Source: Thermoguttaceae bacterium
GTDB lineage: Bacteria; Planctomycetota; Planctomycetia; Pirellulales; Thermoguttaceae
Direction of reading: 5' to 3'
Length of the DNA: 27,629 bases
Assembly (NCBI GenBank): GCA_017447745.1
Contig: JAFSMW010000106.1
Location: 1 to 27,629 of the forward strand
Shown here: positions 2 to 26,121 of the stretch, piece after piece
Layout of the letters: the number at the start of each line of letters is the position of its first letter
Position numbering within the stretch: the stretch's first letter is position 1
Translations under genes and position numbers: made by a program
The notes under the pieces: generated by a model
The model's database searches: none
Seen by the model: only the letters and a program-made list of their open reading frames with translations
What the model was told of the DNA's origin: nothing

Positions 2-1621
2 GTTGCGGAAGAAATCGCCAACGCCTGGACGAATTTTGACCTCTGCCCCAAGCCGGAAGTCGCGGGACCCGGGTTTCTCAATATTCGCATTAACAACGCC
101 TGGCTGGAAAAGAGCGTTCAAGCGCAGCTGACTGACGAACGCCTGAGCGTCCCTGCCGTTGAAAAGCCCCGGACAATCGTTATCGACTATTCCGCGCCGA
201 ACGTCGCCAAGCCGATGCACGTCGGGCATATTCGCTCCACGTCCATCGGAGACGCGCTGTACAAGATTCTGAAATTCCTCGGACACAACGTTATCAGCGA
301 CAACCACCTGGGCGACTGGGGAACGCAGTTCGGCATGATTATCTGGGGGTATCGCCGATTCCTCAACCCGGAAGCGTATCAAGCCAATCCGGTGGCGGAA
401 CTGACCCGAATATATCGGCTGGTTCGTCAGCTTGTAGACGAAAAGAAAACGGTTAAAGAGGCAGTAGGCAGTAGGCAAGAGGCAGTAGATTCGCCTGACG
501 GCGATCAGCTGGTCGGCGACGCCGTTTTGATGGAGACGTCCAAACTGCATCACGGCGACGAAGAAAACCTCGCTCTGTGGAAACAGATCATGCAGTCCTG
601 TTACAAGGAAATCGACAAGGTCTACAGCCGGCTTAAAGTTCGATTCGACTACACGCTGGGGGAAAGCTCGTATCAGCCGCAGCTGGAACCGCTGGTTGAA
701 AGCATGATTGCCAGCGGGCTGGCGCAGGTCAGCGAAGGCGCCGTTGTCGTGTTTAACCCGGAAATTTCCGAAGCCCCGTTTTTAATCCGCAAGCGCGACG
801 GCGCGTTTATCTACGGCACAACTGACCTCGCGACGCTGGAATATCGCAAGGCGCATTTTCATCCGGACGCCGTGTTGTACGTTGTCGATTCCCGTCAGGC
901 GTTACATTTCCAGCAGCTTTTCCGCACGTGGCGGCGCATGGATCCCGCTAACGAAAACGTCGAACTCAAACACGTCTCGTTCGGCACCGTTATGGGCGAC
1001 GACGGCAAACCGTTCAAAACCCGTTCCGGAGACACGGTCGGGCTGGAAAGCCTTCTGGACGAAGCGGAATCCGCCGCATGGAAAGTCGTCGAGCAGTCGC
1101 AGGCGTGTCAGTCCATGACGGAAGAACAGCGGCGCGACGTCGCCCGAAAAGTCGGAATCGGCGCGTTGAAGTACGCAGACCTGAGCCAAAACCGCGATTC
1201 GGACTACGTCTTTTCCTACGAAAAAATGCTTGCCATGAACGGCAACACAGCAACGTACATGCAGTATGCCTACGCCCGCGTCAGAAGCATTTTCGACAAA
1301 GGCGGAATCGACGTCGAAGCGTTCCGAAAATCCAATCCGGCTATCGTTTTGACTCAGCCGGCAGAACGCGCTCTGGTTATCGAACTGTCACGGTTTGAAG
1401 AAGCGCTGCTATCTGCCGTTTCCGACTACCGACCCAATCAGCTGACGTCGTACCTGTTTGAACTGGCGGCGCGGTACTCAACGTTCTTTGAACGCTGTCC
1501 CGTTCTCAAAGCGGAATCGGAAGAAGCCAAAACAACCCGACTGGCTCTGTGCGACCTGACCGCTCGAACAATCCAAAAGGGCTTGGAACTGCTGGGAATT
1601 GAAACGGTAGAAAGAATGTGA
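2..1621 (+). CDS. argS: Arginine--tRNA ligase (ArgRS), 5'-partial (gene starts before window)
   Basis: Reading frame is open from the window edge. Translation from nt 2 gives ...IVIDYSAPNVAKPMHVGHIRSTSIGDA (class I HIGH motif region) and GDWGTQFGM. Length and C-terminal anticodon-binding-like region fit ArgRS. Track ORF 215..1621 is the same frame from an internal Met. Confidence 0.9.
   Translation, partial: VAEEIANAWTNFDLCPKPEVAGPGFLNIRINNAWLEKSVQAQLTDERLSVPAVEKPRTIVIDYSAPNVAKPMHVGHIRSTSIGDALYKILKFLGHNVISDNHLGDWGTQFGMIIWGYRRFLNPEAYQANPVAELTRIYRLVRQLVDEKKTVKEAVGSRQEAVDSPDGDQLVGDAVLMETSKLHHGDEENLALWKQIMQSCYKEIDKVYSRLKVRFDYTLGESSYQPQLEPLVESMIASGLAQVSEGAVVVFNPEISEAPFLIRKRDGAFIYGTTDLATLEYRKAHFHPDAVLYVVDSRQALHFQQLFRTWRRMDPANENVELKHVSFGTVMGDDGKPFKTRSGDTVGLESLLDEAESAAWKVVEQSQACQSMTEEQRRDVARKVGIGALKYADLSQNRDSDYVFSYEKMLAMNGNTATYMQYAYARVRSIFDKGGIDVEAFRKSNPAIVLTQPAERALVIELSRFEEALLSAVSDYRPNQLTSYLFELAARYSTFFERCPVLKAESEEAKTTRLALCDLTARTIQKGLELLGIETVERM
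458..505 (+). repeat. In-frame copy of the heptamer-array + hairpin element inside argS (gaggcagtaggcagtaggcaagaggcagtag + attcgcctgacggcgat)
   Basis: Matches the intergenic copies at 1620-1647, 15976-16006 and 23960-23980 (reverse complement). Translated as EAVGSRQEAVDSPDGD. The only unit that would put TAG in the argS frame is the GAG variant. Confidence 0.7.
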
Positions 1622-1680
1622 GTTAGGCAATAGGCAAGAGGCAGTAGTTTAAAAGTCCCTACTGCCTACTGCCTACTGCC
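1620..1680. terminator. Heptamer-array hairpin element between argS and ligA (arms gagttaggcaataggcaagaggcagtag / ctactgcctactgcctactgcc)
   Basis: Imperfect ~22-bp inverted repeat with an 11-nt loop. The left arm starts inside the argS TGA (TGAGTTAGG). TAG/TAA stops appear in all three frames within 34 nt of the stop. Confidence 0.5.
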
Positions 1681-1689
1681 TTAAATGCC

Positions 1690-4641: not shown

Positions 4642-4710
4642 GGCGAATTCGCCTGATTAGTTAGAATGATTATTTGGCGTTGGAAAGGATTGGTCTTTTC
4701 TCAACGCTTC

Positions 4711-6684: not shown

Positions 6685-6797
6685 GGTTCTCTCCTTGTGG
6701 CGATGTGGTGAATAGTTGCGAGTAGCGAGTTGCGAGAGAAATTGTGTAAGGCGTATGCTTTCTCTTGTTTCGTGCTGCTCAATAGCTTCTTTATTAT

Positions 6798-6826
6798 ATA
6801 TTACCAGAAAACACCTAATTTGACAA
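6798..6826 (-). promoter_or_regulatory. Sigma70-like promoter candidate for the 4711..6684 gene (minus-strand -35 TTGTCA, 17-nt spacer, -10 TAATAT)
   Basis: Plus-strand sequence reads atatta(6798-6803)-17 nt-tgacaa(6821-6826). It lies ~115 nt upstream of the ATG at 6684, in an AT-rich patch. Confidence 0.35.
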
Positions 6827-6890
6827 GAGGAATTTTGGCTATTGTCCAGTTTGGGCGTTGCGAAAGATTAGATTTTTTGAGGCGCTTTGA

Positions 6891-6948
6891 CTCATCACTC
6901 CTCACTCCTAATTCCTAACTCAAACCACTCCCTATACTCTATTCCCCT
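6891..6948 (-). repeat. Heptamer array (CCTCACT/CCTAATT/CCTAACT ... TATTCCC on plus strand) overlapping the umuC-like stop codon
   Basis: The minus-sense strand reads TAGGGGAATAGAGTATAGGGAGTGG...GAGTTAGGAATTAGGAGTGAGG. The umuC-like TAG stop is the first TAG of the array. Confidence 0.7.
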
Positions 6949-8206
6949 ATTTTACTATCGGCAGATCGTCCCATTCGGTCGTGTATCGCGGGGACGTGTT
7001 TTGCTGGACAGATTTCCAGGAATCGTCTAAAAGCTGAGTTCCGGTCATGACAGAACTGCGACCGAACTTTTCGTTGAGTCGGTCGAGGGTTTTCATCAGT
7101 CCGGCGCGGCGTTCCAGTTCTTCCGGGTCGTCGAAAAAGGTCAGCTGGGCGCGATTGACAGCGGCGGAGGACAGGTCAATAAGGATGATTCCCGCTTTCT
7201 GATAGGCGTAGTTGGGCTGAAAGATTTTGGCAAGTCCGTCAAGAGCCGCCTGAGTCAGTACAAGCGTATCGCTGGTGGGACGTCCAAGCGGAACGACGGT
7301 TGACGCTGAATATTGCGCCACCGGTCGAAACGGGCTGGTGCGAATATAGACGTCAATAGCGCGGGCGACCTGCCCCTGTTCCCTCAGCTTTTCCGCCGCG
7401 CGGGAAACGAACGTCGAAATTGCGGAAGAAAGCGCGTCGAATTCGTATCGCGGCTTGCCGAACGTGCGTGACGTCTGAATGCTTTTCGCCGTTGGCGGGG
7501 ACTGCTGGTTGCCCAGACAGGATTCCCCGTTGAGTTCCCGAACCATCGCTTCCTGGATGACGGTAAATCGTTTGCGAATTTGAACCGGGTCTTGCTGAGC
7601 GAGGTCAAACGCCGACCGGATTCCCATTCGTTCCAGCTTGACCGACAGCTGACGTCCTACGCCCCAGACTTCTTCCACTGGAAAGCGTTTCAGAACGTCG
7701 ATTCGCTTCGATTCGTCCAGCAGCAGACAGGTTTTTACGCCATCCATTTTCGCCTGGCGGTTGGCGACTTTTGCCAGCGTCCGAGTCGGGGCGATTCCAA
7801 TGGAAATCGGAATGCCCGTCCAGAGCTTGACGCGGTCAACGATAGACTCAGCAAACTCCGTTGTAACGTTTCGCATTCCCGTCAGGTTCAAAAACGCTTC
7901 GTCGATAGAATACTGTTCAATTTCCGGAACCGCAGACGCCAGGGTTTGCATGACCCGCTGGCTCATGTCGCCGTACAGAGCGTAGTTAGAAGAAAAGACG
8001 GCAACGCGATTGGCGCGGCAGAATTCCCGAATCTGGAAAAACGGCGCGCCCATGGCAATTCCAAGCTGTTTCGCTTCCCGACTTCTGGCGACAACGCAGC
8101 CGTCGTTGTTCGACAGGACAATAACAGGGCGTCCGCGCAAAAACGGCTTGAACGCCGTCTCGCACGATGCGTAAAAACTGTTACAGTCAGCCAGAGCAAA
8201 GAGCAT
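6947..8206 (-). CDS. umuC: Y-family DNA polymerase, UmuC-like (error-prone translesion polymerase)
   Basis: The N-terminus MLFALADCNSFYASCETAFKPFLRGRPVIVLSNNDGCVVARSREAKQLGIAMGAPFF is near-canonical UmuC. The track ORF extends to 8383 only by reading through the upstream repeat; the true ATG is at 8204-8206. No umuD/LexA-like gene is adjacent. Confidence 0.8.
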   Translation of the reverse strand: MLFALADCNSFYASCETAFKPFLRGRPVIVLSNNDGCVVARSREAKQLGIAMGAPFFQIREFCRANRVAVFSSNYALYGDMSQRVMQTLASAVPEIEQYSIDEAFLNLTGMRNVTTEFAESIVDRVKLWTGIPISIGIAPTRTLAKVANRQAKMDGVKTCLLLDESKRIDVLKRFPVEEVWGVGRQLSVKLERMGIRSAFDLAQQDPVQIRKRFTVIQEAMVRELNGESCLGNQQSPPTAKSIQTSRTFGKPRYEFDALSSAISTFVSRAAEKLREQGQVARAIDVYIRTSPFRPVAQYSASTVVPLGRPTSDTLVLTQAALDGLAKIFQPNYAYQKAGIILIDLSSAAVNRAQLTFFDDPEELERRAGLMKTLDRLNEKFGRSSVMTGTQLLDDSWKSVQQNTSPRYTTEWDDLPIVK

Positions 8207-8235: not shown

Positions 8236-8404
8236 GAGTTAGGAATGAGGAGGGAGGAGTGAGGAGTTGGTATAGCGCTTTGCGCCGACAGGGTCGGTTC
8301 CCGAATGGACGTGGGATGCGCCGAAATAGGCTTTTTCGGAGGCATAACCTTGTCCTCTTGCCCGCGCGGCTTCGCGCCCTCACTCCTAATTCCTAACTCC
8401 TAAC
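8236..8404. repeat. MITE-like unit: inverted heptamer arrays (gagttaggaatgaggagggaggagtgaggag ... cctcactcctaattcctaactcctaact) flanking a ~95-bp core with a gcgcg-gctt-cgcgc hairpin
   Basis: The arms at 8236-8269 and 8377-8404 are reverse complements of the same heptamer family. It sits between the metzincin stop (8423) and the umuC-like start (8206). Confidence 0.5.
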
Positions 8405-8422
8405 TGTTTAAACTACAGTCTA

Positions 8423-9826
8423 TTAATCCCTAATCTTTATATGAATCCCCTCCGTCTTTCCGTACCGGTCAATGACGTGCATTTCCAAATCGCCTTTGAA
8501 TTCCTCGCAGCCGTCTTTAAGTTCCTCTACAGAGAATCGCATCTGCTTCGGCAGCGGCTGACCGGGTTGAGGCGCAACGTAAAGTTGTCTATCTTCGCCG
8601 GACGCGACGCCGAAAAAGGCGATGCCGTTTTCCGCTTCGAGTTTAACGGACTGATTGTCGTCGATGAGTTCAATTTTGACGTCTCCTTCATCGTTTACCG
8701 GCGGTTCGTCCTGGAAGAACCGGTTGACGTTCAGCGCCGCGGCGGAAATGGGCGACCAGTTGGCGGCTTCGTCGTCAATATTTTCCAGCCAATCGTCGTT
8801 TTCTTTGCTGGGGGCTTCCCGCATGACAAAGAAACGGTTGAGCTGGTCGATTCCTCGCGTCATGATGTCGCGCGGTTCGTTGGAATGGGGCAGATCGAAG
8901 GTGTGTCCCAACTCGTGCAGAGCCGCGCCGATTGTCGTTGCCGCTGCCGCCCAGTAGACGGAACGGTAGGCGGAATCGTCATGGAAATGTTTGCTGTCAA
9001 CGGGGGTGGAGTCCGTAAACGCTTTGACGACGCCGTCGAGCGAGTCCGACCACGTATACATGCAGCTGGAACCGAACATCGCCTGACAGCCGCCACCCAA
9101 AGCAGTGTGACATTTCGTCTCTTTGGTTTTGGGATCAAAGCGCGTATAGGAGGGAATGACGAGGTTGCGTCCGGAATCTTCCGGGAACTGGGGCGTAACT
9201 TCGTCATAAACCATGTCGTACCAGTCTTCATCAGAAACGGAACCGTATTCTTTCGCCGTCTTCTTTCCTTTGAAGACGTGAACAATGACGTCGCCGTTTT
9301 CGTCCAGTTCCAGATTGAACGTCTTTCTGCCCAGACCAGCGTCGTTCATGGATTCCGCCGTAAAACACTGCATCAATTTGAGAGCGGTGTCGAGTTTTCC
9401 TTTGAAATTCTGTGGGTCGTTTTTATACGGCGTTTGAAACGTCGTGTCGCCGGTGGAATCCGTCATGTAAATCATACGGACAACCAGCGGATTGGAGTTC
9501 TTTTTGTAGTTCAGCTTCAGAGTCGTTTTATATTCTCCGCTTGTCAGTTCGAGTTCATTTTCTCCCGGAACGAGTTCAGCAAGAACCTTGAACTTGCCTT
9601 TCCAGGCGTCGCCATGAATCTTTCGAGACGCTTTCTGAGACGATAAATTTGTACAGACAATTTCCGTTGCGGATTCGTCGTACAGACGCCCTCGCAGCAA
9701 CGCGACCGGGTAATCAATTTCCGTCCCGTCGGTAAAATTAACGACTTGAATCGCCTCGTCGGCAAACAGCGCCGACGTCAGTGAAATAAGTAAAGCAAAA
9801 GCAATAGTTGTAATGTAACGAGTCAT
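8423..9826 (-). CDS. Secreted metzincin-type zinc metalloprotease (matrixin-like HEXXHXXGXXHS motif, here HELGHTFDLPHS, plus Met-turn DIMTRG), paralog A
   Basis: Signal peptide MTRYITTIAFALLISLTSALFA. Zinc-binding motif and Met-turn are present. Closely similar along its whole length to the 9933..11330 gene immediately upstream. Confidence 0.7.
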   Translation of the reverse strand: MTRYITTIAFALLISLTSALFADEAIQVVNFTDGTEIDYPVALLRGRLYDESATEIVCTNLSSQKASRKIHGDAWKGKFKVLAELVPGENELELTSGEYKTTLKLNYKKNSNPLVVRMIYMTDSTGDTTFQTPYKNDPQNFKGKLDTALKLMQCFTAESMNDAGLGRKTFNLELDENGDVIVHVFKGKKTAKEYGSVSDEDWYDMVYDEVTPQFPEDSGRNLVIPSYTRFDPKTKETKCHTALGGGCQAMFGSSCMYTWSDSLDGVVKAFTDSTPVDSKHFHDDSAYRSVYWAAAATTIGAALHELGHTFDLPHSNEPRDIMTRGIDQLNRFFVMREAPSKENDDWLENIDDEAANWSPISAAALNVNRFFQDEPPVNDEGDVKIELIDDNQSVKLEAENGIAFFGVASGEDRQLYVAPQPGQPLPKQMRFSVEELKDGCEEFKGDLEMHVIDRYGKTEGIHIKIRD

Positions 9827-9864
9827 AATATACAGGGATTAAATTGGAATGTCTGAGTCGTTTT

Positions 9865-9944
9865 GAGTTAGGAATTAGGAGTGAGGAGCGATATTCGCCG
9901 AAGGCGAACCACTACTGCCTACTGCCTCTTGCCTATTGCCTAAC
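9865..9944. repeat. Heptamer-array + hairpin element between the two metzincin paralogs (gagttaggaattaggagtgaggag / ttcgccgaaggcgaa / ctactgcctactgcctcttgcctattgcctaac)
   Basis: The central hairpin is a perfect palindrome. The right arm supplies the last three codons and the TAG of paralog B (..VRQ*). Confidence 0.7.
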
Positions 9945-11330
9945 ATGAACGCTTCTCGTCTTTCCGTAACGGTCAATAGCGTGAAGCTCCAAACCGTCTT
10001 TGAAATTTTTGACTTTGTCTTTGAGTTCCTGAACGGAGAATCGCATCTGTTTAGGCAGTTCCTGACCCGGTTGAGGGGCAACGAAAAACTGGCGATGTCC
10101 GTCAGACATGGCGCCGAAATAAGCGATGCCGTTTTCCGCCTCGACCTCAACGGTTTCCCCGTCGTCAACGATCTGCAGCGTAACTCTCCCTTGATTTTCA
10201 GCCGGCGGTTCGTCCTGGAAGAACGGGCAGACGTTCAGCGCCGCGGCGGAAATGAGCGACCAGTTGGCGGCTCGGTCGTCCAGGTTTTCTAACCAATCTC
10301 GATTGAATCTGCTGGGAGCTTCCCGCATGACGAAAAAGCGGTTAAGCTGGTCGATTCCGCGGGTCATGATGTCGCGCGGCTGGTTGGAATGGGGCAGACC
10401 GAAGGTGTGTCCCAACTCGTGCAAAGCCGCGCCAATTGTCGTTGACGCCGCCGCCCAGTAAACGGAACGGAAAGCAGTGTCGTCATGGAAACGCTCTTTA
10501 TCAACGGGCGTGGAATCCGTAAACGCCTTGACAACGCCGTCGAGCGAATCCGGCCACGTGTACATGCAGCCTGACCCGAACAGAGCCAGACTTCCGCCGC
10601 CTAACGCTGTGTGACATTTCGTCCTTTTGGTTTCTGGATCAAAGCGAGTATAGGCGGGAATGACGAGGTTTTTTCCATTGTACCACGGGAAGTCATTTGA
10701 TATTTCCTGATAGACCTTATCGTACCATTCATGATCGGAAAGAGCGGCGTATTCCTCCATCGTCTTCTGTCCTTTGAAGACGTGAACGATTACGTCGCCG
10801 TTGTCGTCCAGTTCCAGATTGAACGTCTTTCGACCCAGCCCAGAGTCGTTCATGGTTTCTGCTGTAAAGCACTGCATCAGCTTTAACGCGGTGTCGAGCT
10901 TGCCCTTGAAATTCTGCGGGTCGTTTTCATACGGCGTTTGGAACGTTGTGTCGCCGGTCGAATCCGTCATGTAAATCATACGGACGACCAACGGGTTGGA
11001 GTTCTTTTTGTAGTTCAGTTTCAGAGTCGTTTTATGATCCCCACTTGTCAGTTCGAGTTCGTTTTCCCCCGGAACGAGTTCCGCAAGAACCTTGAACTGA
11101 CCTTTCCAGGCGTCGCCGTGAATCTGTCGAGACGCTTTCTGAGAAGACAAATTCGTACAGACGATTTCCGTTGCGGATTCGTCAGAAAGACGCCCTCGCA
11201 GCAACGCGACCGGGTAGTCAATTTCCGTTCCGTTGGTAAAGTTAACGACTTGAATCGCCTCGTCGGCATACAGAGCCGACGTCAGCGAGATAAACAATGC
11301 AAAAACGATAGTTGTGATGGTGCGTGTCAT
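9933..11330 (-). CDS. Secreted metzincin-type zinc metalloprotease (HELGHTFGLPHS, Met-turn), paralog B
   Basis: Signal peptide MTRTITTIVFALFISLTSALYA. Canonical HEXXHXXGXXH is present. The preferred start is the second Met (matches paralog A); the track start at 11351 adds MINTLPT. There are 17 bp between it and the upstream oxidoreductase stop. Confidence 0.7.
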   Translation of the reverse strand: MTRTITTIVFALFISLTSALYADEAIQVVNFTNGTEIDYPVALLRGRLSDESATEIVCTNLSSQKASRQIHGDAWKGQFKVLAELVPGENELELTSGDHKTTLKLNYKKNSNPLVVRMIYMTDSTGDTTFQTPYENDPQNFKGKLDTALKLMQCFTAETMNDSGLGRKTFNLELDDNGDVIVHVFKGQKTMEEYAALSDHEWYDKVYQEISNDFPWYNGKNLVIPAYTRFDPETKRTKCHTALGGGSLALFGSGCMYTWPDSLDGVVKAFTDSTPVDKERFHDDTAFRSVYWAAASTTIGAALHELGHTFGLPHSNQPRDIMTRGIDQLNRFFVMREAPSRFNRDWLENLDDRAANWSLISAAALNVCPFFQDEPPAENQGRVTLQIVDDGETVEVEAENGIAYFGAMSDGHRQFFVAPQPGQELPKQMRFSVQELKDKVKNFKDGLELHAIDRYGKTRSVHVRQ

Positions 11331-11347
11331 GGTAGGGAGCGTATTAA

Positions 11348-12829
11348 TCAATCAATTGTCGGAACGATATACGGTGCGCGCTGCGGTCGCGTCAGCAGGG
11401 CGTTGGCTTCCGGCATGCCGTCAATCTGGAATGTTTCGTTGTTGATGGAAATCTTCTTGCCCAGCGTCCAGGCAACGTCTTTGTTGAGGTCAAGCTCCGG
11501 CAGACAGAACTGGACGTTTTCGAGCGTTTCGTCAATCGTCTGCTGCATAATCGGATTGTTCCCGACAGCGTCGCGGCAGGCGTTCAGAGACGCTGTTGAC
11601 CCGGAACGATAAGAGACGTTGCCCAAGTGACAAATTCCGGCGCTGAAATGCCCTTCGGTAATCGGCGCGTTGAGCTTGTCCGGCGTATTGTCGCGAACGC
11701 AGTTGATAAAGTTCTGGAAGATGTCGCCGGGGTTGAGCGCTTCGCAGTCAATATTGATTTGTTCCGTCTTTCCGTTGTTGGAATGGAACGTCGAACCTTG
11801 AATGTACCCATCTTCTGTTACAAACCAGCCAACTTCTCGCGGATTCCATTTGTCGTTGTTGCGATTTCTCAGATTGCAGGACTGGAAAATGAGCGGGATC
11901 CCGTTAAAGTCGCAAATTCCCAGCATGACAGTTGGTGTCTCAGCGGCGTCCTTGTAATTATGCTCTTTGTCGATAACCGTTCGCGTTCCGAAAAAGACGA
12001 CGTTTTGCGGGAATTTGAGATCGGGGAAAAGCTGCGTCAGACCGATTCGGCAGACGTCAAAGTAATGGACGCCGTTGTTGCCGATTTCTCCGTTTCCGAA
12101 ATTCCAGTACCAGTGCCAGTTGTATGGGACGTATCGTTCGCTAAAGGGAACCATCGCCGCCGGACCGACCCACAAGTCCCAATCGATGTTTTGCGGGGCA
12201 GGGGCGTCTGGAAGGAACGGCATGGGATTGCGCGGTCGATTGGCAAACGCCTTAACGGCAATCGGTTTCCCGAACATTCCCTTTGCCCAGGCGACTGCGC
12301 CTTTTTTTGTTCCGAAGTCGCACCGTCGCTGCGTTCCGTGCTGAATGCAGACGTTGTACTTTCTCATCGCCGCCGCCAACTGACAGCCCTCAAAGAGATT
12401 TTGGGAACAGGGCTTTTCGACGTAGACGTGCTTTCCCGCCTGCGCCGCCCAAATTCCCAAAAGCGAATGCCAATGGTTGCAGGACGCAATCGAAACAAAA
12501 TCGACGTCCTTGTCGTCAAAAAGCTGACGGGCGTCCTGAACGGCTTTGCAGTCGTTTCCCTTTTTATCTTTGATCCATTTAGCAGCGCTGTTGGCGCGAT
12601 TCAAATCAGCGTCCGCCGTTCCGACGATTTCCACGCCGTTGATGCCGGAAAACGCCTGAACGTGATGATTTCCTCGACTGCCAACGCCCAACACGGCGCC
12701 GCGAAGGCGGTCGTTCGCTCCAAACGCCTTGGACGAAATAAACAAAGGACAAACCGCCGCGCCGGAAATGACGACGCTGGCTTTAACGAAATCTCGTCTT
12801 GAAATCTTTCTTTTGAAAGTCATGATCAT
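11348..12829 (-). CDS. Gfo/Idh/MocA-family NAD(P)-dependent oxidoreductase with twin-arginine (Tat) signal
   Basis: RRDFVKASVVISGAA Tat motif. Rossmann-type VLGVGSRGNHHVQAF...VEIVG and EKPCSQ family motif. 493 aa. Confidence 0.8.
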   Translation of the reverse strand: MIMTFKRKISRRDFVKASVVISGAAVCPLFISSKAFGANDRLRGAVLGVGSRGNHHVQAFSGINGVEIVGTADADLNRANSAAKWIKDKKGNDCKAVQDARQLFDDKDVDFVSIASCNHWHSLLGIWAAQAGKHVYVEKPCSQNLFEGCQLAAAMRKYNVCIQHGTQRRCDFGTKKGAVAWAKGMFGKPIAVKAFANRPRNPMPFLPDAPAPQNIDWDLWVGPAAMVPFSERYVPYNWHWYWNFGNGEIGNNGVHYFDVCRIGLTQLFPDLKFPQNVVFFGTRTVIDKEHNYKDAAETPTVMLGICDFNGIPLIFQSCNLRNRNNDKWNPREVGWFVTEDGYIQGSTFHSNNGKTEQINIDCEALNPGDIFQNFINCVRDNTPDKLNAPITEGHFSAGICHLGNVSYRSGSTASLNACRDAVGNNPIMQQTIDETLENVQFCLPELDLNKDVAWTLGKKISINNETFQIDGMPEANALLTRPQRAPYIVPTID

Positions 12830-12929
12830 TTTTACAGGTTAAAAGGAAGGGAAAACGTTCGATGAAAACAGTCCATGCGACGCTCGGATTATAAATTATC
12901 ATTTATTATATCAAAACCGATTTTAAAAT

Positions 12930-13119
12930 GGAATAGGGGGGAGGAGATATAAGCTATTAGCTAATAGCTAGAAGCTAGCAACTCAAAAAATACTCCCTCC
13001 GTGGGTTAAAACCCACGGCTACAAATATTGAACTGCTACGCAGTTCTTGAGGAACGCTATCGCGTCTGTTTAAATAACTACGCCCTCTTCCCTACTGCCT
13101 ACAGCCTCTTTTTCCCTCA
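12930..13119. repeat. Divergent-promoter region packed with element parts: ggaataggggggaggag, an AGCTATT/AGCTAAT/AGCTAGA/AGCTAGC heptamer array, hairpin ccgtgggtt-aa-aacccacgg, hairpin gaactgc-tac-gcagttc, and ccctactgcctacagcc
   Basis: Direct reading between the oxidoreductase start (12829) and the M16 peptidase start (13247). Confidence 0.5.
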
Positions 13120-13246
13120 ATTTTAGATAAAAAAGAACAAATAGGGGGTTTTTGCCGTATCATTAAATATTGATTTCGTGTATAATATTTATATAGTTCA
13201 AAATATTATGTTGTTTCAATTTACCCCCCCAAAAAGAGAAAAACTT

Positions 13247-15970
13247 ATGTCCGTTCAATCCCATTCCAACGCCTGGACGTCCCGGGTTGCCCTTCTGGCA
13301 ATTGGAACGTTGATGGCTTTTGCGTCCAGCGACGCGTTTGCTCAAATTTCACCTCTTTCCACTACGCCTTCCGCTATGAACTCAACTTCATCTTCCGCGC
13401 CGACAACCGAACCGTTGACTGTACTCAGCCGAGAAACGCTTCAACCCGGTTTGACGATGGCGAAACTGTCCAACGGTTTGACGATACTCATTCAGGAAAA
13501 CCACACTGCGCCCAACGCGACGGTTCGCTGCTTTGTCAAAAACACGGGCAGCATGAACGAAACCGGACATCTTGGAGCCGGTTTGAGCCACGTTCTGGAA
13601 CACGTCGTTTCCGGCGGATCTACAGCAACTCGAACCGAGGCGGAAACGGAAGACATGGTCGACCGCATGGGCGGCGTTACCAACGCCTTTACGTCCATCA
13701 ACGTAACAGCGTACTTTATCGACTGCCCGTCCAAAGACGTCATCAAGGCAGTTGACATCATCGCGGACGAAATGCAGCACATCGCGTTTGTTCCCAAAGA
13801 ATTCAATCGGGAACTGCAGGTCGTTCAGCAGGAGCTTCGAGACGGCGAAGCCAGCCGCGCCCGGGTTATGTGGAAGATGATGGCGGAAACCCGCTATCTG
13901 AAGCATCCTGCCCGACTGCCCGTTATTGGATATTTGGACGTCTTGCAGCGAGCTTCCAACGACGATATTATTTCCTTCTATAAACAGCGATACATTCCCA
14001 ACAACCAGATCTTCGTCGTTGTTGGCGACGTCAAAACAGACGAGATTCTAGAACGCGTTCGCAAGAATTATGAGGGAACGCCCCGCGGCAAGATGAACGA
14101 CATTGTCGTTCCTCAGGAACCGCTACAGGCATCTCCCCGCTTTGCGGTTAGAGAGATGGACGGCGCGACTTTCGACGTAACCGTTTTCTGGCCGACGGTC
14201 AGCATCGATTCACCTGACATGTACCCGCTGGACATTCTCGACTACGTTTTGGCGGAAGGAGCCAGTTCCCTTCTGGTTAAAAAATACTGCATGGACAACC
14301 CCTTGGCGCTGTCGATTGGCGCGTCCAGCTCTACCCCCAACTACGCGCCGGGCATGTTTGCCGTTCAGATGTCTCTGACGGAAGAGAACTATCCCGCCGT
14401 TGTCGACCAAGTCGTTGCCGACGTCTACAGGATGCGCGACGTTCTCATTCCGGAAGAACTGCTCGAAAAAGCCAAAAAGCAGAAAATCGCCGAGCAGATT
14501 TTTGGTCTGCAGACGATTCAGGCGCAGGCGGATAATCTGGCGCAGTCGTACATTGCCACCGGCGACCCTCTGTTCGACAACACCTACGTTGAACAGATTA
14601 AAAAGGTAACAGCGCAGGACGTTCAGCGCGTTGCCAGAAAATACCTCGTTCCGGAACGATTCAACAAGGTCGTTATTACCCCGTTGGGCAAATCTCAAAA
14701 AGCGACTCAAAGCGCCGCTGAAGCGACCGATTTCCCCATTCAACAACTGACGCTGGAAAACGGCGTAACGGTTCTGACAAAGCGGATCCCTAACCTGCCG
14801 CTGGTTTCGATGCAGGTCTACGTTAAAGGCGGAGCGGTTATCGAAACGCCGGAAAACGCCGGGGTGAGTCTGCTGTCAGCCAACATGTTTGAAAAAGGCT
14901 GTCAAGGCATGACAGCCGCTCAAATCGCCGAATATTTTGACCTGATCGGCGGTTCGATTGGCTTCACAGCCGCCCGCAACACCACCTCCGGATCCATCCT
15001 GACCCTCAAAGAGGACTTCCCCAAGGCGTCGGAAATTCTGGCGGAATGCTTCCTCCGTCCGACGTTCCCGGAAGACGAATTCGCCAAGCTGAAAGTTCAG
15101 GCTCTCGGTCTTCTTCAACGAAAGAAAGCCGACCCGCGATCCGAAGCCCGCGACGCGTTCTTCAACGCTCTGCCCAAAACCAGCTCGTTTAGTCACATTG
15201 TCGGCGGAACGATTGAGTCCGTTTCCAACTTGACGCTGGACGACCTCAAAAAGTACCATCAGACGTACGTTCAGCCGGACGGCATGGTCGTCGCGATTTT
15301 TGGAGACATCTCTACAGAAGACGCCGTCGCGCAAGCGAAAAAACTCTTTGGAAACCTCAAGCAAACCGCTCGTCCTGTCGTTTCCTACGACCTGCCCAAT
15401 ACGATTGAAAAATCGGTTGTCAAACACGTCAAGACGGAAAAGACGACAGCCATGATTCTCATCGGGTACGAATGCCCGTCCATGCTCGACGTTGAAGATT
15501 ACAACGCGATGTACGTTCTCAACGGAATTGTTACCGGCTGCGGATACCCCGGCGGCTGGACGTTCCCGGAACTGCGCGGCGCGGGGCTGGTCTACAGCGT
15601 TCACGGAATCCGCATGGCGGGAATCAGCCCCGGATACTTCACGATTATCGCCCAAACCCGCCCGGACGCCGTTGACGAAGTCGTCGAACGAATCCGCAAG
15701 AACATCGAAAAAGCGAAGGCGGGAACGATTACCGAAGAAGAATTCGAAAAAGCCAAGGAAATGATTATCGCCATGGAAGCCCAGGACAACACGACTGCCA
15801 GCGATCAGGCGACTCAGGCGGCAGTCGATACAATCCTCGGTCTGGGTCCGGAATACCAAAAGGGTTCCGCCGCCCGAATCAACGCAGTTACCCTCGACCA
15901 GGTCAAAACCGTCGCGAAAAAATACCTGACCAATTCCGTTCAGGTTACGCTGTCGAATAAAGACGAGTAA
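13247..15970 (+). CDS. Secreted M16-family (pitrilysin/insulinase-like) zinc peptidase, fused active + inactive halves
   Basis: Inverted zinc motif HxxEH (GLSHVLEHVVSGGS) in the N-terminal half and an M16-like second half; ~907 aa. Signal peptide MSVQSHSNAWTSRVALLAIGTLMAFASSDAFAQ. The track start at 13178 is an upstream GTG/ATG extension. Confidence 0.85.
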   Translation: MSVQSHSNAWTSRVALLAIGTLMAFASSDAFAQISPLSTTPSAMNSTSSSAPTTEPLTVLSRETLQPGLTMAKLSNGLTILIQENHTAPNATVRCFVKNTGSMNETGHLGAGLSHVLEHVVSGGSTATRTEAETEDMVDRMGGVTNAFTSINVTAYFIDCPSKDVIKAVDIIADEMQHIAFVPKEFNRELQVVQQELRDGEASRARVMWKMMAETRYLKHPARLPVIGYLDVLQRASNDDIISFYKQRYIPNNQIFVVVGDVKTDEILERVRKNYEGTPRGKMNDIVVPQEPLQASPRFAVREMDGATFDVTVFWPTVSIDSPDMYPLDILDYVLAEGASSLLVKKYCMDNPLALSIGASSSTPNYAPGMFAVQMSLTEENYPAVVDQVVADVYRMRDVLIPEELLEKAKKQKIAEQIFGLQTIQAQADNLAQSYIATGDPLFDNTYVEQIKKVTAQDVQRVARKYLVPERFNKVVITPLGKSQKATQSAAEATDFPIQQLTLENGVTVLTKRIPNLPLVSMQVYVKGGAVIETPENAGVSLLSANMFEKGCQGMTAAQIAEYFDLIGGSIGFTAARNTTSGSILTLKEDFPKASEILAECFLRPTFPEDEFAKLKVQALGLLQRKKADPRSEARDAFFNALPKTSSFSHIVGGTIESVSNLTLDDLKKYHQTYVQPDGMVVAIFGDISTEDAVAQAKKLFGNLKQTARPVVSYDLPNTIEKSVVKHVKTEKTTAMILIGYECPSMLDVEDYNAMYVLNGIVTGCGYPGGWTFPELRGAGLVYSVHGIRMAGISPGYFTIIAQTRPDAVDEVVERIRKNIEKAKAGTITEEEFEKAKEMIIAMEAQDNTTASDQATQAAVDTILGLGPEYQKGSAARINAVTLDQVKTVAKKYLTNSVQVTLSNKDE

Positions 15971-16150
15971 GGGTTTAGGCAGTAGGCAAGAGGCAGTAGG
16001 CAGTAGTAGTTCGCCTTCGGCGAATTTTAAACTACGCCATATTACCTATTGTCTAAACTAATGTTTTCCGTTGGTTTGATGAATAAATAAGGCAGTATGC
16101 AGTAGAAAAGATTTCCCTATTGCCTACTGCCTACTGCCTAATGCCTCAAA
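15971..16150. terminator. Bidirectional element between convergent M16 peptidase and GH5 genes: TAGGCAG-type array (15976-16006), hairpin ttcgccttcggcgaa (16010-16024), second hairpin ggcagtatgcagtag...cctattgcctactgcctactgcc (16091-16140)
   Basis: Plus-sense array directly follows the M16 TAA; the minus-sense array follows the GH5 TGA. Perfect GC hairpin in the centre. Confidence 0.6.
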
Positions 16151-16170
16151 CTACTGTCTACTCCCTTTCT

Positions 16171-17765: not shown

Positions 17766-17796
17766 CTACTGCCTATTGCCTACTGCCTATTGTCTA
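17766..17796 (-). repeat. Heptamer array (ctactgcctattgcctactgcctattgtcta) filling the GH5/beta-helix intergenic gap and supplying the ...NRQ-TAG end of the beta-helix gene
   Basis: Direct reading. The stop codon at 17780-17782 lies inside the array. Confidence 0.7.
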
Positions 17797-20257: not shown

Positions 20258-20544
20258 GGCAGGGAAGGGAAGCTGTTGAGATTTGCAAGAGGATGAAAGG
20301 CGGTAATGACGGTTGGTCATTCCAGAGTTTTGGTTTGCCTTCGGCAAACTGCGTAATTCCGCTCCCGTTGGTCGCTCCATTACCGCCTTCCATTCTCATT
20401 ATAAACCAACCCAAAACAAAAATCAAGAATTTTCCTGTATTTTTCTCTTATCCCGCTTTCTTTTTTCTGAATTAATCGTATAAATATAAATAGAGTAATT
20501 GGTTTCTTTGCAAACGTTTGACAATATCACCCAATTTAAGAGTC

Positions 20545-21619: not shown

Positions 21620-23260
21620 ATGACGCATTTAGCAACATTATCGCAGATAACAGAATCTTCGATGATCTATCCGGCAATTTTTATCGGATTGATTATTCTG
21701 CTTCTTGCCGGGCTGTTTGTTCTTTTTCTGAAATGTTATAAACGCTGCCCCAGTAACCGGATTCTTGTCATTTTCGGTATGACGGAAAAAGGCAAATCGG
21801 CAGTCTGCATTGCCGGCGGCGCGAGATTCGTCAAGCCGTTTATTCAGGATTACGCTTGGCTGTCTCTCGAACCGATGCAGATTGAAGTTCCTCTGCGCGG
21901 CGCGCTGTCTTTGGAAAACATCCGCGTCAACGTCCCCAGCGTGTTTACGGTTGCTATCGGAACGTCAGACGACCTGATGCAAAATGCAGCAGTTCGACTT
22001 CTCGGCTTGTCTTTCGGGGAAATCAAAAAGCAGGCAGAGGACATCATTTTCGGTCAGATGCGTCAGGTAATCGCGTCCATGCCGATTGTTGACATCAACC
22101 GCGACCGTGACAAGTTTCTGGAAAACATTCAACATTCTCTGGAACCGGAATTGCGAAAAATCGGTTTGATTCTCATCAACGTCAACATTACAGATATTAC
22201 TGACGAATCTGGCTACATCGAAGCAATGGGGCAGAAAGCGGCGTCTGAAGCGATTCAGAAGGCGCGCGGCGACGTTGCGGAAAACGAAAAGATGGGCGCT
22301 GTCGCCGTTGCCAACGCAGAACGGGAAAAGGCGGTTCGCGTTTCGGAAGCCAACCGCGACATGAACATCGGAACCCGTGAAGCTGAACGAGATCAGCAGA
22401 TTCGTTTGGCAGATCTGGCAAAAGAGCAGTCCATTGGAGAACAACAGGCGGAATTCCAGAAAGAAGCCGAAATCAAAGAAGCAGAACGGGAAATGCGAAT
22501 TCGTCTGGCAGACGCCAACGCGAAGGCGATTGAGGGCGAAAACATCTCTCAAGCCGTCATTGCAGCGTCTAAAGCCGAGTTGATGATCAAACAGGCGGAA
22601 GCGTTTCAGGCAGGCGGTACGAAAAAGGCCGTTGCGGAAGCCGCTGTTAAAGAAGCGGAAAACTTGGCTTTGGCAAAGGCGGCGGAAGCGGAAGCGGTTC
22701 GCATTGAAGCAGAGCGTCGCGCCGAACTGGAAGCCCCGGCAAAAGCCGAAAAGGCGAAAATCATCGTCGAGGCGGAAGCCGAAGCCGAGAAACGACGCGT
22801 CGAGGCGACTGGTCGAGCGGCAGAAATCTATGCGGAACTGGAAGCACGAGCCCGCGGCGAATACGAAATCCTCGCTCGGAAAGGCGAAGGTCTTCAGAAG
22901 ATTATCGAGGCGTGCGGCGGCGCGGAAGCTGCGTTCCGACTCCTGCTTCTGGAACATTTCGACACACTGATCGAATCCTCCGCAAAAGCCATTTCCAACA
23001 TCAAGTTCGACAAAGTCGTCGTTTGGGATGGAACTGGACAAGGCGGTCAAACGGCAACGTCCAACTGGCTTACCGGCATGGCGAAAACGCTCCCGCCGAT
23101 GCTCGAAGTCATGAAAGAAGTCGCCGGCGTCGACATCCTGCCGTCTATCACCGGAGCCGAAAGCAAAGAACCCGCTCCGGCGGCAGAAGCCCCTGTCCCA
23201 ACGGAACCCCCTGCCCCGGCGGCAGAAAAACCTGTAACAAAAACCGCTGCGAAGAAATAG
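21620..23260 (+). CDS. floT: Flotillin-like SPFH/band-7 protein (FloT-like)
   Basis: N-terminal membrane hairpin followed by an SPFH domain and a long Ala/Glu-rich coiled-coil (EA repeats); 546 aa. The TAG stop is part of the downstream GGGAATA array. Confidence 0.8.
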   Translation: MTHLATLSQITESSMIYPAIFIGLIILLLAGLFVLFLKCYKRCPSNRILVIFGMTEKGKSAVCIAGGARFVKPFIQDYAWLSLEPMQIEVPLRGALSLENIRVNVPSVFTVAIGTSDDLMQNAAVRLLGLSFGEIKKQAEDIIFGQMRQVIASMPIVDINRDRDKFLENIQHSLEPELRKIGLILINVNITDITDESGYIEAMGQKAASEAIQKARGDVAENEKMGAVAVANAEREKAVRVSEANRDMNIGTREAERDQQIRLADLAKEQSIGEQQAEFQKEAEIKEAEREMRIRLADANAKAIEGENISQAVIAASKAELMIKQAEAFQAGGTKKAVAEAAVKEAENLALAKAAEAEAVRIEAERRAELEAPAKAEKAKIIVEAEAEAEKRRVEATGRAAEIYAELEARARGEYEILARKGEGLQKIIEACGGAEAAFRLLLLEHFDTLIESSAKAISNIKFDKVVVWDGTGQGGQTATSNWLTGMAKTLPPMLEVMKEVAGVDILPSITGAESKEPAPAAEAPVPTEPPAPAAEKPVTKTAAKK

Positions 23261-23316
23261 GGAATAGGAATGGGGAATAGGGAGTAGACGCTTGCGTCAA
23301 CTCCTCACTCCTAACT
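23257..23316. terminator. Bidirectional element between convergent flotillin and minimal-metallopeptidase genes (tagggaataggaatggggaatagggagtag / acgcttgcgt / ctcctcactcctaact)
   Basis: The plus-sense array contains the flotillin TAG. The minus-sense array begins 2 nt after the metallopeptidase TGA. Confidence 0.6.
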
Positions 23317-23774: not shown

Positions 23775-23781
23775 AGATGCA

Positions 23782-23980
23782 GGGAATAGGGAGTAGGGAA
23801 TGGGGAGTAGGGAATAGGGAATAGGGAATAGGGAGTGGCAAGTGGATTGGAAGGCGGTAATGGAGCGACCAACGGGAGCGGAATTACGCATTCGCCGTCA
23901 GGCGAACGGAGGCATTAGGCGATAGGCAATAGGAAAGAGTGTAAAATTTCTACTGCCTACTGCCTCTTGCCTACTGCCTC
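23782..23980. repeat. Large composite element between the radical-SAM gene and the metallopeptidase gene: (GGGAATA/GGGAGTA)x8, hairpin ttcgccgtcaggcgaa (23891-23906), TAGGCGA/TAGGCAA/TAGGAAA array, then ctactgcctactgcctcttgcctactgcc
   Basis: Direct reading. The last arm encodes the final EAVGKRQ and the TAG of the radical-SAM protein on the minus strand. Confidence 0.8.
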
Positions 23981-25036
23981 CCTATAGTCCTCATAGCACA
24001 ACAGCGGCTCATTGCGGTCAAAGTCCCAGGTATGGGTTGAATCGCCGCCGCAAAGAAACCGCTCTGAACAGTTGACGCATTTGGAGCAGTCGGCAGTGCG
24101 GTCTTTTCTGAAAACCTGAAAACGATTCAGCCAGACGTCCATAAAGTTGTCCGTCTTGATATTCCCCTGAACCAGCTCCGGTCTGTTTTCGATATCCAGA
24201 CACGCACAGATGTCGCCGTTGCTTCTCACGCTGGCAACTAAGATTCCCGCTCCGCAGAGGAAATAATGATCGCGAACCATGCGCTCGTTCTCTGCTCCAA
24301 GGTAATGCGAGCACCCGAACGTTACTTCCATCTTGTTGGCGCTGTCAAATCGCTTGTTTCGTATATAGGAAATCAACTGAGCAAACTGTTCCGGCGACAA
24401 CAACATGTCGCTTGACTCACAAGCTCGTCCAATCGGCTCTACGTTGATCGGCCGCCAGTTGGTTATGCCCATCTGAGTGAGCATATCGTACAGCTCGTCC
24501 AGTTCGTTGAAGTTGTCTCGATGTAACACGGTCGTTACCTGCGGCTCGAACCCCGCCTTCTGCAGAGCTTTCAGCCCGCGCAGAGCAAGACGCCAGCTGC
24601 CCTTCCGCTGTCGGAGAGAGTCGTGCGAGCGCTCCAGCCCGTCCAGGCTGACGGACACCGTAGACATTCCAACCTGTTTAAGATTCTCTGCAATCACGTC
24701 GTCGATCAACGTCGCGTTTGTCGTCATGCCCCAATAGAACCCCATCGACCGAACGCATTGAGCTATCTCGAAAAAAGCAGGATGCATCATCGGCTCGCCG
24801 CCGGTTAAGCAGATTGAGGGTTTGTCGCCCTGAATGGTTTTCAGGACGCCTTTAATATCCTCGACGGTCAACGTCTGCCCATGAGCGGTGCAGTTACTCC
24901 CGCAATGCCGACACCGAAGATTGCATCGATTGGTAATTTCAAAGAAAAGCCACCGGAGATGCGGAGATTTTCGGAGGGATTCCCTGTGCTGCGCGACAAC
25001 TTCAAGCTGTGAACGTTTTAGCTCTGTTACATCCAT
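23957..25036 (-). CDS. Radical SAM enzyme with C-terminal SPASM domain (peptide/protein-modifying maturase-like)
   Basis: CxxxCxxC cluster ITNRCNLRCRHC and a GGEP motif (LTGGEPMMHP). C-terminal Cys-rich SPASM-type segment (CGAGILVASVRSNGDICAC ... CSKCVNCSERFLCGG). 359 aa. Confidence 0.85.
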   Translation of the reverse strand: MDVTELKRSQLEVVAQHRESLRKSPHLRWLFFEITNRCNLRCRHCGSNCTAHGQTLTVEDIKGVLKTIQGDKPSICLTGGEPMMHPAFFEIAQCVRSMGFYWGMTTNATLIDDVIAENLKQVGMSTVSVSLDGLERSHDSLRQRKGSWRLALRGLKALQKAGFEPQVTTVLHRDNFNELDELYDMLTQMGITNWRPINVEPIGRACESSDMLLSPEQFAQLISYIRNKRFDSANKMEVTFGCSHYLGAENERMVRDHYFLCGAGILVASVRSNGDICACLDIENRPELVQGNIKTDNFMDVWLNRFQVFRKDRTADCSKCVNCSERFLCGGDSTHTWDFDRNEPLLCYEDYREAVGKRQ

Positions 25037-25494: not shown

Positions 25495-25706
25495 AATATC
25501 CTCCTGTTTATAATACAATTTCTCTGCTAAATACGATTAATAGCGTATTTTTAATATAATCTATTCTCACTTTGTTTTCAAGTAGATTTTTAGAAATTGG
25601 GTAAAAAATTTGAAAAATAGATTATCTCGAGAGTTGCAACTGAGGGCGATAAATTTGGGGTTACGAAAGTAGGTGAGATTAACAATCGCATTCAATTTGA
25701 ACGTAG

Positions 25707-25933: not shown

Positions 25934-26057
25934 TACGACAAGGTTTCAAGGCTATTTCCTTTTTTCATGCCCCCAATTTTGAACACACTCTTCCGAATTC
26001 TGAATTAAAAATAGGTCTGGATAAAAATGGGGAAATATATTATAATAAGAGGTGTAT

Positions 26058-26118
26058 AGGGAATAGAGCTTCGCATTCGGCGAATTTAAATACTATTCCC
26101 TACTCCCTATTCCCTACT
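26058..26118. repeat. Heptamer-array + hairpin element immediately upstream of the 26122 start codon (tatagggaatagag / cttcgcattcggcgaa / tattccctactccctattccctacta)
   Basis: Direct reading. Same family as the elements at gene 3' ends. Confidence 0.7.
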
Positions 26119-26121
26119 ATC

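Follow-up and report, generated by a model that had tools for sequence, protein, structure and literature searches.

What are the short tandem repeats that lie at so many gene ends in this gut planctomycete, and what might they do there? The question is raised by positions 15971-16150 of the window, by which we mean the whole stretch of 27,629 nt analyzed here, from a gut Thermoguttaceae bacterium (Planctomycetota). The interval lies between the ends of an M16 gene and a GH5 gene and carries tandem 7-nt units beside a small GC-rich hairpin. An earlier note on this DNA had listed it as one of 12 copies of an intergenic element, which it did not recognize as a described repeat class and which it read as an all-frame translational stop combined with a terminator or insulator hairpin. 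We find that the heptamer-repeat family at gene ends is genuine, non-random and highly ordered. The class to which it belongs, the heptanucleotide tandem repeats of bacteria, is already known, and members of it have been published with the same features (PMC4692102; also PMC4679880). What is new is the lineage, a gut Thermoguttaceae clade in which such repeats have multiplied, and the set of units.

Heptamer arrays and their placement at gene ends

Arrays of period 7 were called with Tandem Repeats Finder (TRF) and set against a null of 100 dinucleotide-preserving shuffles, and the genes of the window were positioned by Pfam. The 27.6-kb window holds 18 such arrays, compared with a shuffle mean of 0.49 and a maximum of 3, and 16 of the 18 lie mostly in intergenic DNA, which makes up 8.9% of the window. 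All have 2.7-4.7 copies, with the single exception of one array of 7.7. That the family is real and stands above background frequency, as the earlier note had claimed, is thus borne out. Its inventory needs some correction: 11 of the 12 listed copies contain a TRF-supported array, but 4642-4670 is a palindrome, GGCGAATTCGCC, alone and without an array, and a further array at 6714-6736 (TTGCGAG/TAGCGAG) had been overlooked. Likewise, the hairpin TTCGCC-N3-4-GGCGAA, taken there as the conserved center, has exactly three exact matches in the window (9894, 16010 and 23891, with 0.02 expected) and near-matches at 490-505 and 26070-26084; it is well above chance but is one apex variant among several, not a universal one. 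A search against Rfam returned no match at gathering scores and, at E <= 1, just spurious matches of the hairpins to microRNA precursors.

On the plus strand, every element in the window reads as a purine-rich (R) array, an apex and a pyrimidine-rich (Y) array. The R units are TAGGCAG/TAGGCAA, TAGGAAT/TAGGAGT/GAGGAGT, TAGGGAA/TAGGGAG and TTGCGAG/TAGCGAG, with the general form of TAG plus four nucleotides. The apex takes one of two forms: a GC mini-hairpin of 4-7 bp with a loop of 3-4 nt (TTCGCC-N3-GGCGAA, GACGC-TT-GCGTC, GCGC-TTT-GCGC, and also GACGCTTGCGTC and GCGCTTTGCGC in the window; ACGC-AAA-GCGT and CGCGAAGCG in relatives) or an AT-rich loop of 10-16 nt. The R-then-Y order is kept whatever the orientation of the flanking genes, the divergent spacer at 12830-13177 included, and across Thermoguttaceae loci about 20 pairs are R-first and none reversed. 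An element built in this way reads alike from both sides and can, by prediction, fold as an imperfect stem-loop of 20-30 bp.

The interval at 15971-16150, described before as a single copy, does contain arrays, but these belong to two elements, 15976-16058 and 16090-16146. The first opens with the R array TAGGCAG-TAGGCAA-GAGGCAG-TAGGCAG-TAG on the plus strand (15976..16006; TRF period 7, 4.4 copies), which begins 5 nt past the stop codon of the M16 gene (TAA, 15968-15970). Its apex is the mini-hairpin TTCGCC-TTC-GGCGAA at 16010..16024, an exact instance of the pattern with a 7-8-bp stem, and its Y arm is the degenerate plus-strand sequence CTACGCC-ATATTAC-CTATTGT-CTAAAC (16033..16058; inverted-repeat pair I13), predicted from the fold to pair with 15976-16006 via G-U pairs. 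The second element has a short R arm on the plus strand, AGGCAGTATGCAGTAG (16090..16109; direct-repeat family D10, 72% identical to 1625-1685), followed at 16116..16146 by a Y array that is, on the minus strand, an R array of TAGGCAG type (TRF 4.4 copies, 91% matches); in that direction it lies 24 nt past the GH5 stop codon at 16171.

Predicted RNA folds of the two are -39.6 kcal/mol for 15968-16064 on the plus strand (z = -6.45; -29.7 kcal/mol for the minus strand) and -24 kcal/mol for 16085-16155 (z = -5.5), and comparable values are obtained for 1615-1690 (-32.5 kcal/mol, z = -5.4) and 23905-23985 (-39.9 kcal/mol, z = -6.7). Pairs whose arms come from one unit family are predicted to fold strongly, with z from -5.4 to -6.7; the mixed-family element at 9858-9948 folds weakly (z = -2.1), and single arms are without a fold (z = -0.1 and -1.0). 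The earlier note had stressed that different unit families often sit on the two sides of the hairpin. This holds for about one-third of pairs, but in five of the eight pairs of the window both arms come from the same family. Complementarity between the arms of an element is 0.696, a value reached in 0 of 300 shuffles, compared with 0.640 +/- 0.016 for swapped arms.

In the window, the R strand, which carries TAG, is the sense strand at 11 of 11 array-adjacent gene 3' ends, as the earlier note had said of gene ends, and the Y strand, which carries CTA, is the sense strand at 8 of 8 array-adjacent gene 5' ends. This rule follows in part because the order of the arms is fixed, but a metagenome set shows more than that. 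A scan of metagenomes with the 17-mer TAGGCAAGAGGCAGTAG returned at least 120 loci, and the following counts refer to the 120 unrelated loci listed, which comprise 719 kb. Most of the matches sit inside longer in-phase arrays. Period 7 leads the TRF output, with 276 rows compared with 108 for the next period; the number of units has a mode of 4 and a median of 4.4 copies over 268 arrays; and adjacent arrays of opposite skew are ordered R-then-Y in 43 cases and Y-then-R in 1. Within -3 to +10 nt of stop codons there are 43 R-sense arrays and 1 Y-sense array, and among unpaired arrays at stop codons the numbers are 33 and 1. Just 4 Y-sense arrays are hidden in the final 90 nt of reading frames, so the strand bias at gene ends is not an artifact of how reading frames were called. 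Spacer occupancy is 42% for convergent, 19% for tandem and 9% for divergent spacers, and so rises with how many gene 3' ends each type offers. For 5 of the 11 array-adjacent genes of the window, a TAG of the array is itself the stop codon. For annotation it matters that the arrays define or overlap many stop codons and that they lead to start codons being called too far upstream.

Known heptamer repeats, relatives and the argS patch

A variety of dispersed repeats in bacteria resemble these elements to different degrees. Closest are the repeats described by Rehm et al. (2015), GGGAATC in Xanthomonas and GGGGAYT in Nostoc, which form intergenic arrays with a preference for about four units and 70-75 convergent inverted pairs per genome (PMC4692102). 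At stop codons, which they overlap or follow by no more than 50 bp, their G-rich strand is the coding strand, and 5' of start codons it is the non-coding strand; they are rare between divergent genes; and their position is kept while their length varies between species, with function left unresolved (PMC4692102). The elements here share the defining features of that class: tandem 7-nt units, at least three in number and about four as a rule, an intergenic bias, a G-rich sense strand at stop codons, convergent inverted pairs, and positions kept between close relatives while unit number varies. They differ in belonging to another phylum, in having several coexisting unit families, most of them without GGG tracts, in units that contain TAG, TAA or TGA, in the common GC mini-hairpin at the apex and in arms that often mix families. 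Our literature search found no report of TAGGCAG-type units, or of heptamer repeats in Planctomycetes specifically.

The class has been given several names besides 'GGGAATC-type' repeats. The short tandemly repeated repetitive (STRR) sequences of cyanobacteria and the long simple sequence repeats (Mazel 1990 and Mrazek 2007, as cited in PMC4692102 and PMC4679880) are, so far as those accounts describe them, similarly dispersed tandem heptamers with several families per genome, a sporadic distribution and a proposed origin by slippage. In the loci compared here, cyanobacterial arrays are often long and unpaired, in contrast to the copies of this clade, nearly all of which have 3-5 units, are paired and are tied to gene ends. 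MacGregor (2015) reported TAACTGA arrays common to marine Beggiatoaceae, Cyanobacteria and Bacteroidetes, with stop codons in every frame on one strand, which was treated as a constraint on placement (PMC4679880). These are likewise intergenic heptamer arrays (2-6 units), with one unit found across phyla, but they lie mostly just 5' of start codons and almost never form inverted pairs, whereas the arrays here lie at stop codons and are mostly paired.

Several classes outside the heptamer repeats were also compared. With the repetitive extragenic palindromic (REP) sequences, the bacterial interspersed mosaic elements (BIME) and REPINs, the elements have in common that they are abundant extragenic palindromic DNA at gene 3' ends, in inverted pairs, with predicted RNA stem-loops, which in REP sequences act in termination and in the stability of mRNA. 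But a REP unit is a single palindrome of 20-40 nt linked to a REP-associated tyrosine transposase (RAYT), and the arms here are tandem heptamers that, taken singly, do not fold (z = -0.1 and -1.0), which speaks, in line with the earlier note, against a REP or BIME. No RAYT or other transposase was found in the window by Pfam. The same note was right to reject a CRISPR array, which has repeats of 23-50 nt and unique spacers; the units here are 7 nt and contiguous. Integron attC sites were considered, as GTTAGGC occurs at 1622 and GCCTAAC at 9938, and rejected: an attC site has the inverse core RYYYAAC first and the core GTTRRRY last, at the ends of co-oriented cassettes, whereas here the core comes first and the inverse core last, and the neighbors are housekeeping genes on both strands. 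A reading as MITEs, small transposable elements with terminal inverted repeats, seems unlikely as well, the sole filled/empty case found being the patch in argS described below, a microhomology-bounded replacement without duplication. Finally, four or more tracts of at least three G, as a quadruplex requires, are not general here, since only the TAGGGAA family has GGG tracts.

Relatives of the window show how the elements are distributed and how they change. The LigA protein of the window is 95-96% identical to proteins of Thermoguttaceae metagenome-assembled genomes from gut and rumen samples. We compared strains at about 92-94% DNA identity (contigs L122, L127 and L128; L121 and L123-L125 are identical to L122) and a more distant relative, L126, with 73% LigA identity, about 100 kb of the clade in all. 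The relatives share this architecture and show additional unit families (TAGCAAT, TAATTCG/TAATGCG, TAGTGCC and TAGCGGT). The window and L122 both have 6.5 arrays per 10 kb and L126 has 3.7, and arrays are nearly nil in a relative at 55% LigA identity and in the cultured Thermostilla marina (47%), a patchiness that matches the sporadic distribution reported for heptamer repeats. Farther afield, a scan of one genome per species for three units of (K)AGGCAR returned at least 120 loci. The matches listed span Cyanobacteria, Bacteroidota, Acidobacteriota, Planctomycetota, Chloroflexota and others; among them, where a complementary partner exists, it is found 3' of the R array about 17 times and 5' of it once, and the arrays in cyanobacteria often lack a partner and are long, with up to 35 units.

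The element between argS and ligA (1624..1681: R 1624-1647, loop TTTAAAAGTC, Y 1658-1681; TRF and fold) could be followed through four strains. Its spacer is 94-100% identical, compared with 77-82% at flanking four-fold degenerate sites. The sole change in length is of one whole heptamer in both arms, giving 3 or 4 units, and base differences in the R arm are without compensation in the Y arm. At the M16 gene end, the window has a TAGGCAG array where the orthologous end in L126 has an R array of TAGCGGT.

A second case lies inside a gene. The earlier note had listed 458-505 as an intergenic copy; it sits instead within the reading frame of the essential gene argS and leaves that frame open. 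Here, a 48-nt module, consisting of an R array and the mini-hairpin TTCGCC-TGAC-GGCGA (459..505, plus strand; TRF, reading frame and Pfam), has taken the place, in frame, of about 51 nt of the native coding sequence and changes the peptide EQELSGTSVEGEDAS to VGSRQEAVDSPDGD. The patch is present in the window (455-505) and in L127 (208-258), whereas L122 (about 6584-6640) and L128 have a normally diverged native argS segment and no patch. At both edges there is microhomology to the native sequence, GAGGCAG and GGCGA. The patch looks like templated, gene-conversion-like spread, and direct traces of such a module on the move are rare.

Stop codons, stem-loops and competing explanations

Why should the arrays sit where they do? 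The model of the earlier note, in which they are selected as stops in all three frames together with a terminator or insulator hairpin, has some appeal. The strand with the stops is always directed away from the end of the gene, the 5 of 11 genes that stop at an array TAG fit it, and the two remaining frames are closed after a median of 31 nt, compared with 59 nt in a composition-matched null. The arithmetic is also sound, 7 being coprime to 3. But just 32 (36%) of the 89 R-sense arrays at gene ends close all three frames, whereas two frames are closed by 47, a single frame by 8 and none by 2; in the window, about half of the arrays close all three unaided. After the M16 gene, within the very interval flagged, the +1 frame stays open for 91 nt, and the all-frame closure described 3' of argS needs the loop, not the array, for its third frame. 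The recurrent order TAGGCAA-GAGGCAG-TAG includes a unit, GAGGCAG, that loses a TAG, and the copy in argS is translated through in frame. Across unit families (search-seed family excluded), 44 of 58 have a stop on the R strand, compared with 38.6 expected by letter shuffling. Moreover, GGGAATC has the same placement (PMC4692102), although, read from the unit, it contains no stop in any frame. We therefore consider selection for all-frame stops improbable and suggest that the recurrence of TAG every 7 nt is a by-product of purine-plus-T composition and of the common descent of unit families, not a selected function.

The hairpin half of that model fares somewhat differently. The elements are located where terminators would be. 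Like intrinsic terminators, those that act in both directions between convergent genes included, they would place a stable stem-loop, alike from either side, directly 3' of stop codons. Two of them are followed by a promoter-like site for the next gene (9855-9827 and 17751-17724). Unlike intrinsic terminators, they are without a flanking U-tract or A-tract, and their stems are much longer and built of repeats. No T-run was found 3' of the stem in any of the elements, and canonical terminator-like sites in general are at chance level (20 versus 20.5; 27 versus 18.4) and located elsewhere, none at an element. Thus, long hairpins are predicted, but T-runs are missing and the G-U wobble asymmetry does not favor the sense RNA.

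We think it about an even chance that the following model, taken as a whole, is correct. Unit number would be altered by replication slippage, and template switching between the arms would keep them matched. A module of array plus mini-hairpin could be copied to new sites by microhomology-bounded, gene-conversion-like patches, of the kind seen once, in argS. Copies would then persist almost solely at gene ends, where they are presumably tolerated, with the purine strand as sense beginning at the stop codon. The transcript would thereby gain a stable 3' stem-loop, which might end or insulate transcription or protect the 3' end, much as REP and BIME sequences do. The steps at the level of sequence can be read from the DNA itself, and the role in RNA is what we infer.

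A number of observations weigh against this model. The stems have no T-runs, and the sites that do resemble terminators occur elsewhere and at chance frequency. Of 14 elements, 9 have an antisense RNA more stable than the sense RNA, to which G-U wobble gives no advantage. The third of pairs that mix unit families can pair only via the TAGG/CCTA core (z = -2.1), and unpaired arrays cannot fold at all, yet they share the bias toward gene ends. One copy (12930..13111) lies in a divergent spacer. Near relatives manage without the elements, so any function is dispensable. Finally, the high conservation of copies could stem from homogenization among them and not from selection.

The main rivals are a purely non-adaptive origin and Rho-linked polarity. 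The former holds that the arrays have no adaptive role and are a mutational or selfish by-product of slippage, template switching at hairpins and gene conversion, tolerated 3' of genes. This is a real possibility, although we favor it clearly less than the model above. It accords with the patchy, clade-restricted distribution, with length changes in heptamer steps, with the invasion of the argS coding region, with the turnover of unit family at the M16 end (TAGGCAG in the window, TAGCGGT in L126) and with a literature in which no function is established (PMC4692102). But tolerance alone fails to predict the strand bias at stop codons, reported here at 43:1 and extending to unpaired arrays; neither does it predict the arm order, also 43:1, and synonymous sites evolve 4-5 times faster than the argS-ligA element. 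Under Rho-linked polarity, the sense RNA past the stop codon, rich in G and A and poor in C, would not let Rho load, while opposite-strand RNA, or RNA read through beyond the apex, being rich in C and poor in G, would load it, so that read-through and antisense transcription would be cut off at gene ends in both directions. A good Rho loading site is C-rich and G-poor RNA; the Y arms have 0-4 G in 25-70 nt (6891-6960 has none), transcription meets the arms in one and the same order from either side, and canonical intrinsic terminators are absent at these gene ends. Against this, the arrays are about 30 nt, below the typical length of a Rho loading site, and the Y arm would be sequestered whenever the hairpin forms. 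To our knowledge, cyanobacteria lack Rho, though similar repeats abound in them, which also counts against the idea, and we consider it unlikely.

Three further possibilities are weaker still. If each heptamer were a site for a domain that binds single-stranded RNA or DNA (cold-shock, S1, RRM or CsrA-like), or for the anti-Shine-Dalgarno end of 16S rRNA (in GGAG/GAGG units), the strict 7-nt register, the preference for about four units and the strand-specific, gene-linked bias even of unpaired arrays would be accounted for, and candidate binders have been put forward for the TAACTGA (PMC4679880) and the Nostoc repeats (10.1101/2022.06.06.494920). The many unrelated units in one genome disfavor a single sequence-specific binder, however, and we find such a platform improbable. 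Somewhat less probable again is movement as REP- or REPIN-like mobile DNA by a RAYT-type single-strand transposase that recognizes a GTAG head and hairpin. Inverted pairs at gene 3' ends, the recurrence of GTAG at unit junctions of the TAGGCAG family, the dispersal of whole elements of about 60 nt (family D10; L088) and the module copying seen in argS would fit, but the arms are tandem repeats instead of self-contained palindromes, families without GTAG behave alike, arms of different families are combined, and neither a transposase in the window nor a target-site duplication was seen. G-quadruplex formation, proposed for GGGAATC and GGGGAYT, seems the least probable of all. The TAGGGAA/TAGGGAG family does have GGG every 7 nt, with 8 tracts at 23781-23836, its unit is one base from GGGAATC, and the preference for about four units is held in common (PMC4692102). 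The dominant TAGGCAG, TAGGAGT, TTGCGAG and TAATTCG families, in contrast, lack a GGG tract and follow the same rules of length, order and placement, so quadruplex formation is not a general explanation. More speculatively, a dedicated machinery that moves between phyla might write heptamer arrays at hairpin apices or read them on RNA. It would explain why Cyanobacteria, Bacteroidota, Acidobacteriota, Planctomycetota and Chloroflexota have an identical unit, why the 17-mer is found in metagenome contigs of widely differing G+C, why arm order and array start at stop codons are each held at 43:1, and why close relatives have hundreds of copies or none. We think it a long shot, if not quite as long as a binding platform or a mobile element; were it true, the arrays would be a general and transferable system of punctuation at gene boundaries.

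Heptamer repeats have been known since 1990 and are still without an accepted function or origin. The clade examined here is a clean case, with short paired copies at about 6 per 10 kb, several unit families and two rules each held at about 43:1. As most of its families cannot form quadruplexes, the leading published explanation fails as a general one, and what stands for testing is an RNA-level role at gene ends versus a strand-biased copying process.

Further elements and neighboring sequences

The other copies in the window vary the same theme. At 6714..6946 (TRF), the R array TTGCGAG/TAGCGAG (6714-6736) is followed by a Y array of ACTCCTA type (6897-6921), which decays into degenerate units up to the umuC stop codon. 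At 8236..8405 (TRF), arms of the TAGGAGT family (R 8236-8267, Y 8378-8405) enclose a GCGC-TTT-GCGC mini-hairpin and a dispersed repeat of about 100 nt; 8282-8379 is 80% identical to 20121-20218 of L122. The mixed-family element at 9865..9942 consists of an R array of TAGGAAT type (9865-9888), TTCGCC-GAA-GGCGAA (9894-9908) and a Y array of CTGCCTA type (9912-9942) that provides the TAG stop codon of the second of two metallopeptidase genes, and 9893-9943 is 96% complementary to 15975-16025 (pair I2). The two genes, at 8423-9826 and 9933-11351, are tandem PF12044 paralogs with 75-85% DNA identity and have this element between them.

The copy in the divergent spacer, 12930..13111, is degenerate. 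It begins as a purine-rich stretch that includes a TAGCTAA array (12952-12970), continues with a dispersed repeat of two hairpins (12992-13071) and closes with a Y arm (13078-13111). The repeat of two hairpins, 80 nt long, shows 87% identity to 15925-16003 of L122 and has a predicted fold of z about -5.3; small hairpins of a second family, of the CCCACGG/CCGTGGG type, occur in it and at 25706-25729 and 25890-25909. At 17766..17796, an unpaired array on the minus strand (TRF; no fold, z = -0.1) is R-sense for a beta-helix gene, whose TAG stop codon (17780-17782) lies inside it. Between convergent genes at 23256..23316 (TRF; fold z = -3.7), an R array of TAGGGAA type (23256-23287), whose first TAG is the Band7 stop codon, is followed by GACGCTTGCGTC (23287-23298) and the Y arm AACTCCTCACTCCTAACT (23299-23316).

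The composite at 23781..23980 joins an 8-unit TAGGGAA/TAGGGAG array (23781-23836), a 63-nt dispersed repeat (23845-23907) that terminates in TTCGCC-GTCA-GGCGAA, and a hairpin of the TAGGCAG family (R 23910-23933, Y 23950-23980; pair I1), which contains the radical-SAM stop codon. The 63-nt repeat is found again, inverted and 86% complementary, at 20333-20395, as well as three times in L028 and in L120 and L122; it begins with a GC mini-hairpin, and its predicted fold is weak. The last element, 26057..26118 (TRF; fold z = -2.9), comprises TAGGGAATAGAGC, the hairpin TTCGCATTCGGCGAA (26070-26084) and a Y array of CTATTCC/CTACTCC (26093-26118); it stops 3 nt short of the start codon of the next gene, and a promoter-like site lies nearby at 26018-26046. 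It falls within about 600 nt (25519-26121) that are without a credible gene and dense in perfect hairpins, among them a 21-bp perfect stem at 25764-25810 and a hairpin at 25843-25862 followed by a T-run; the open reading frame at 25673-26008, for which Pfam gives no match, is probably spurious.

Some sequences in the relatives deserve mention. L122 carries, 5' of argS (about 5572-5785), an insertion of about 210 nt that resembles a MITE and has terminal inverted repeats; it is absent from L128 (about 510), and similar ends occur in L028 and L126. Seven metagenome contigs (L140, L143, L144, L188, L196, L216 and L235) have a conserved flank in common, after which come TAGGCAAGAGGCAGTAG and a heptamer hairpin, all about 125 nt 5' of a tRNA gene; a reading of the flank as RNase P RNA proved wrong, Rfam finding only the tRNA about 125 nt away. 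In the window itself, LigA (1690-4068) has 792 residues, compared with about 667 in most relatives, and a low-complexity linker at residues of about 64-110, between the Ia and adenylation domains; that the roughly 125 extra residues derive from heptamers was ruled out, as the linker is without a period-7 signal. A tandem repeat of another kind lies at 4805-5100, in the minus-strand gene at 4711-6684, where an 18-nt coding unit in 16 copies (95% identity) encodes the acidic (DDADVE)n C-terminal tail of a thioredoxin-like protein.

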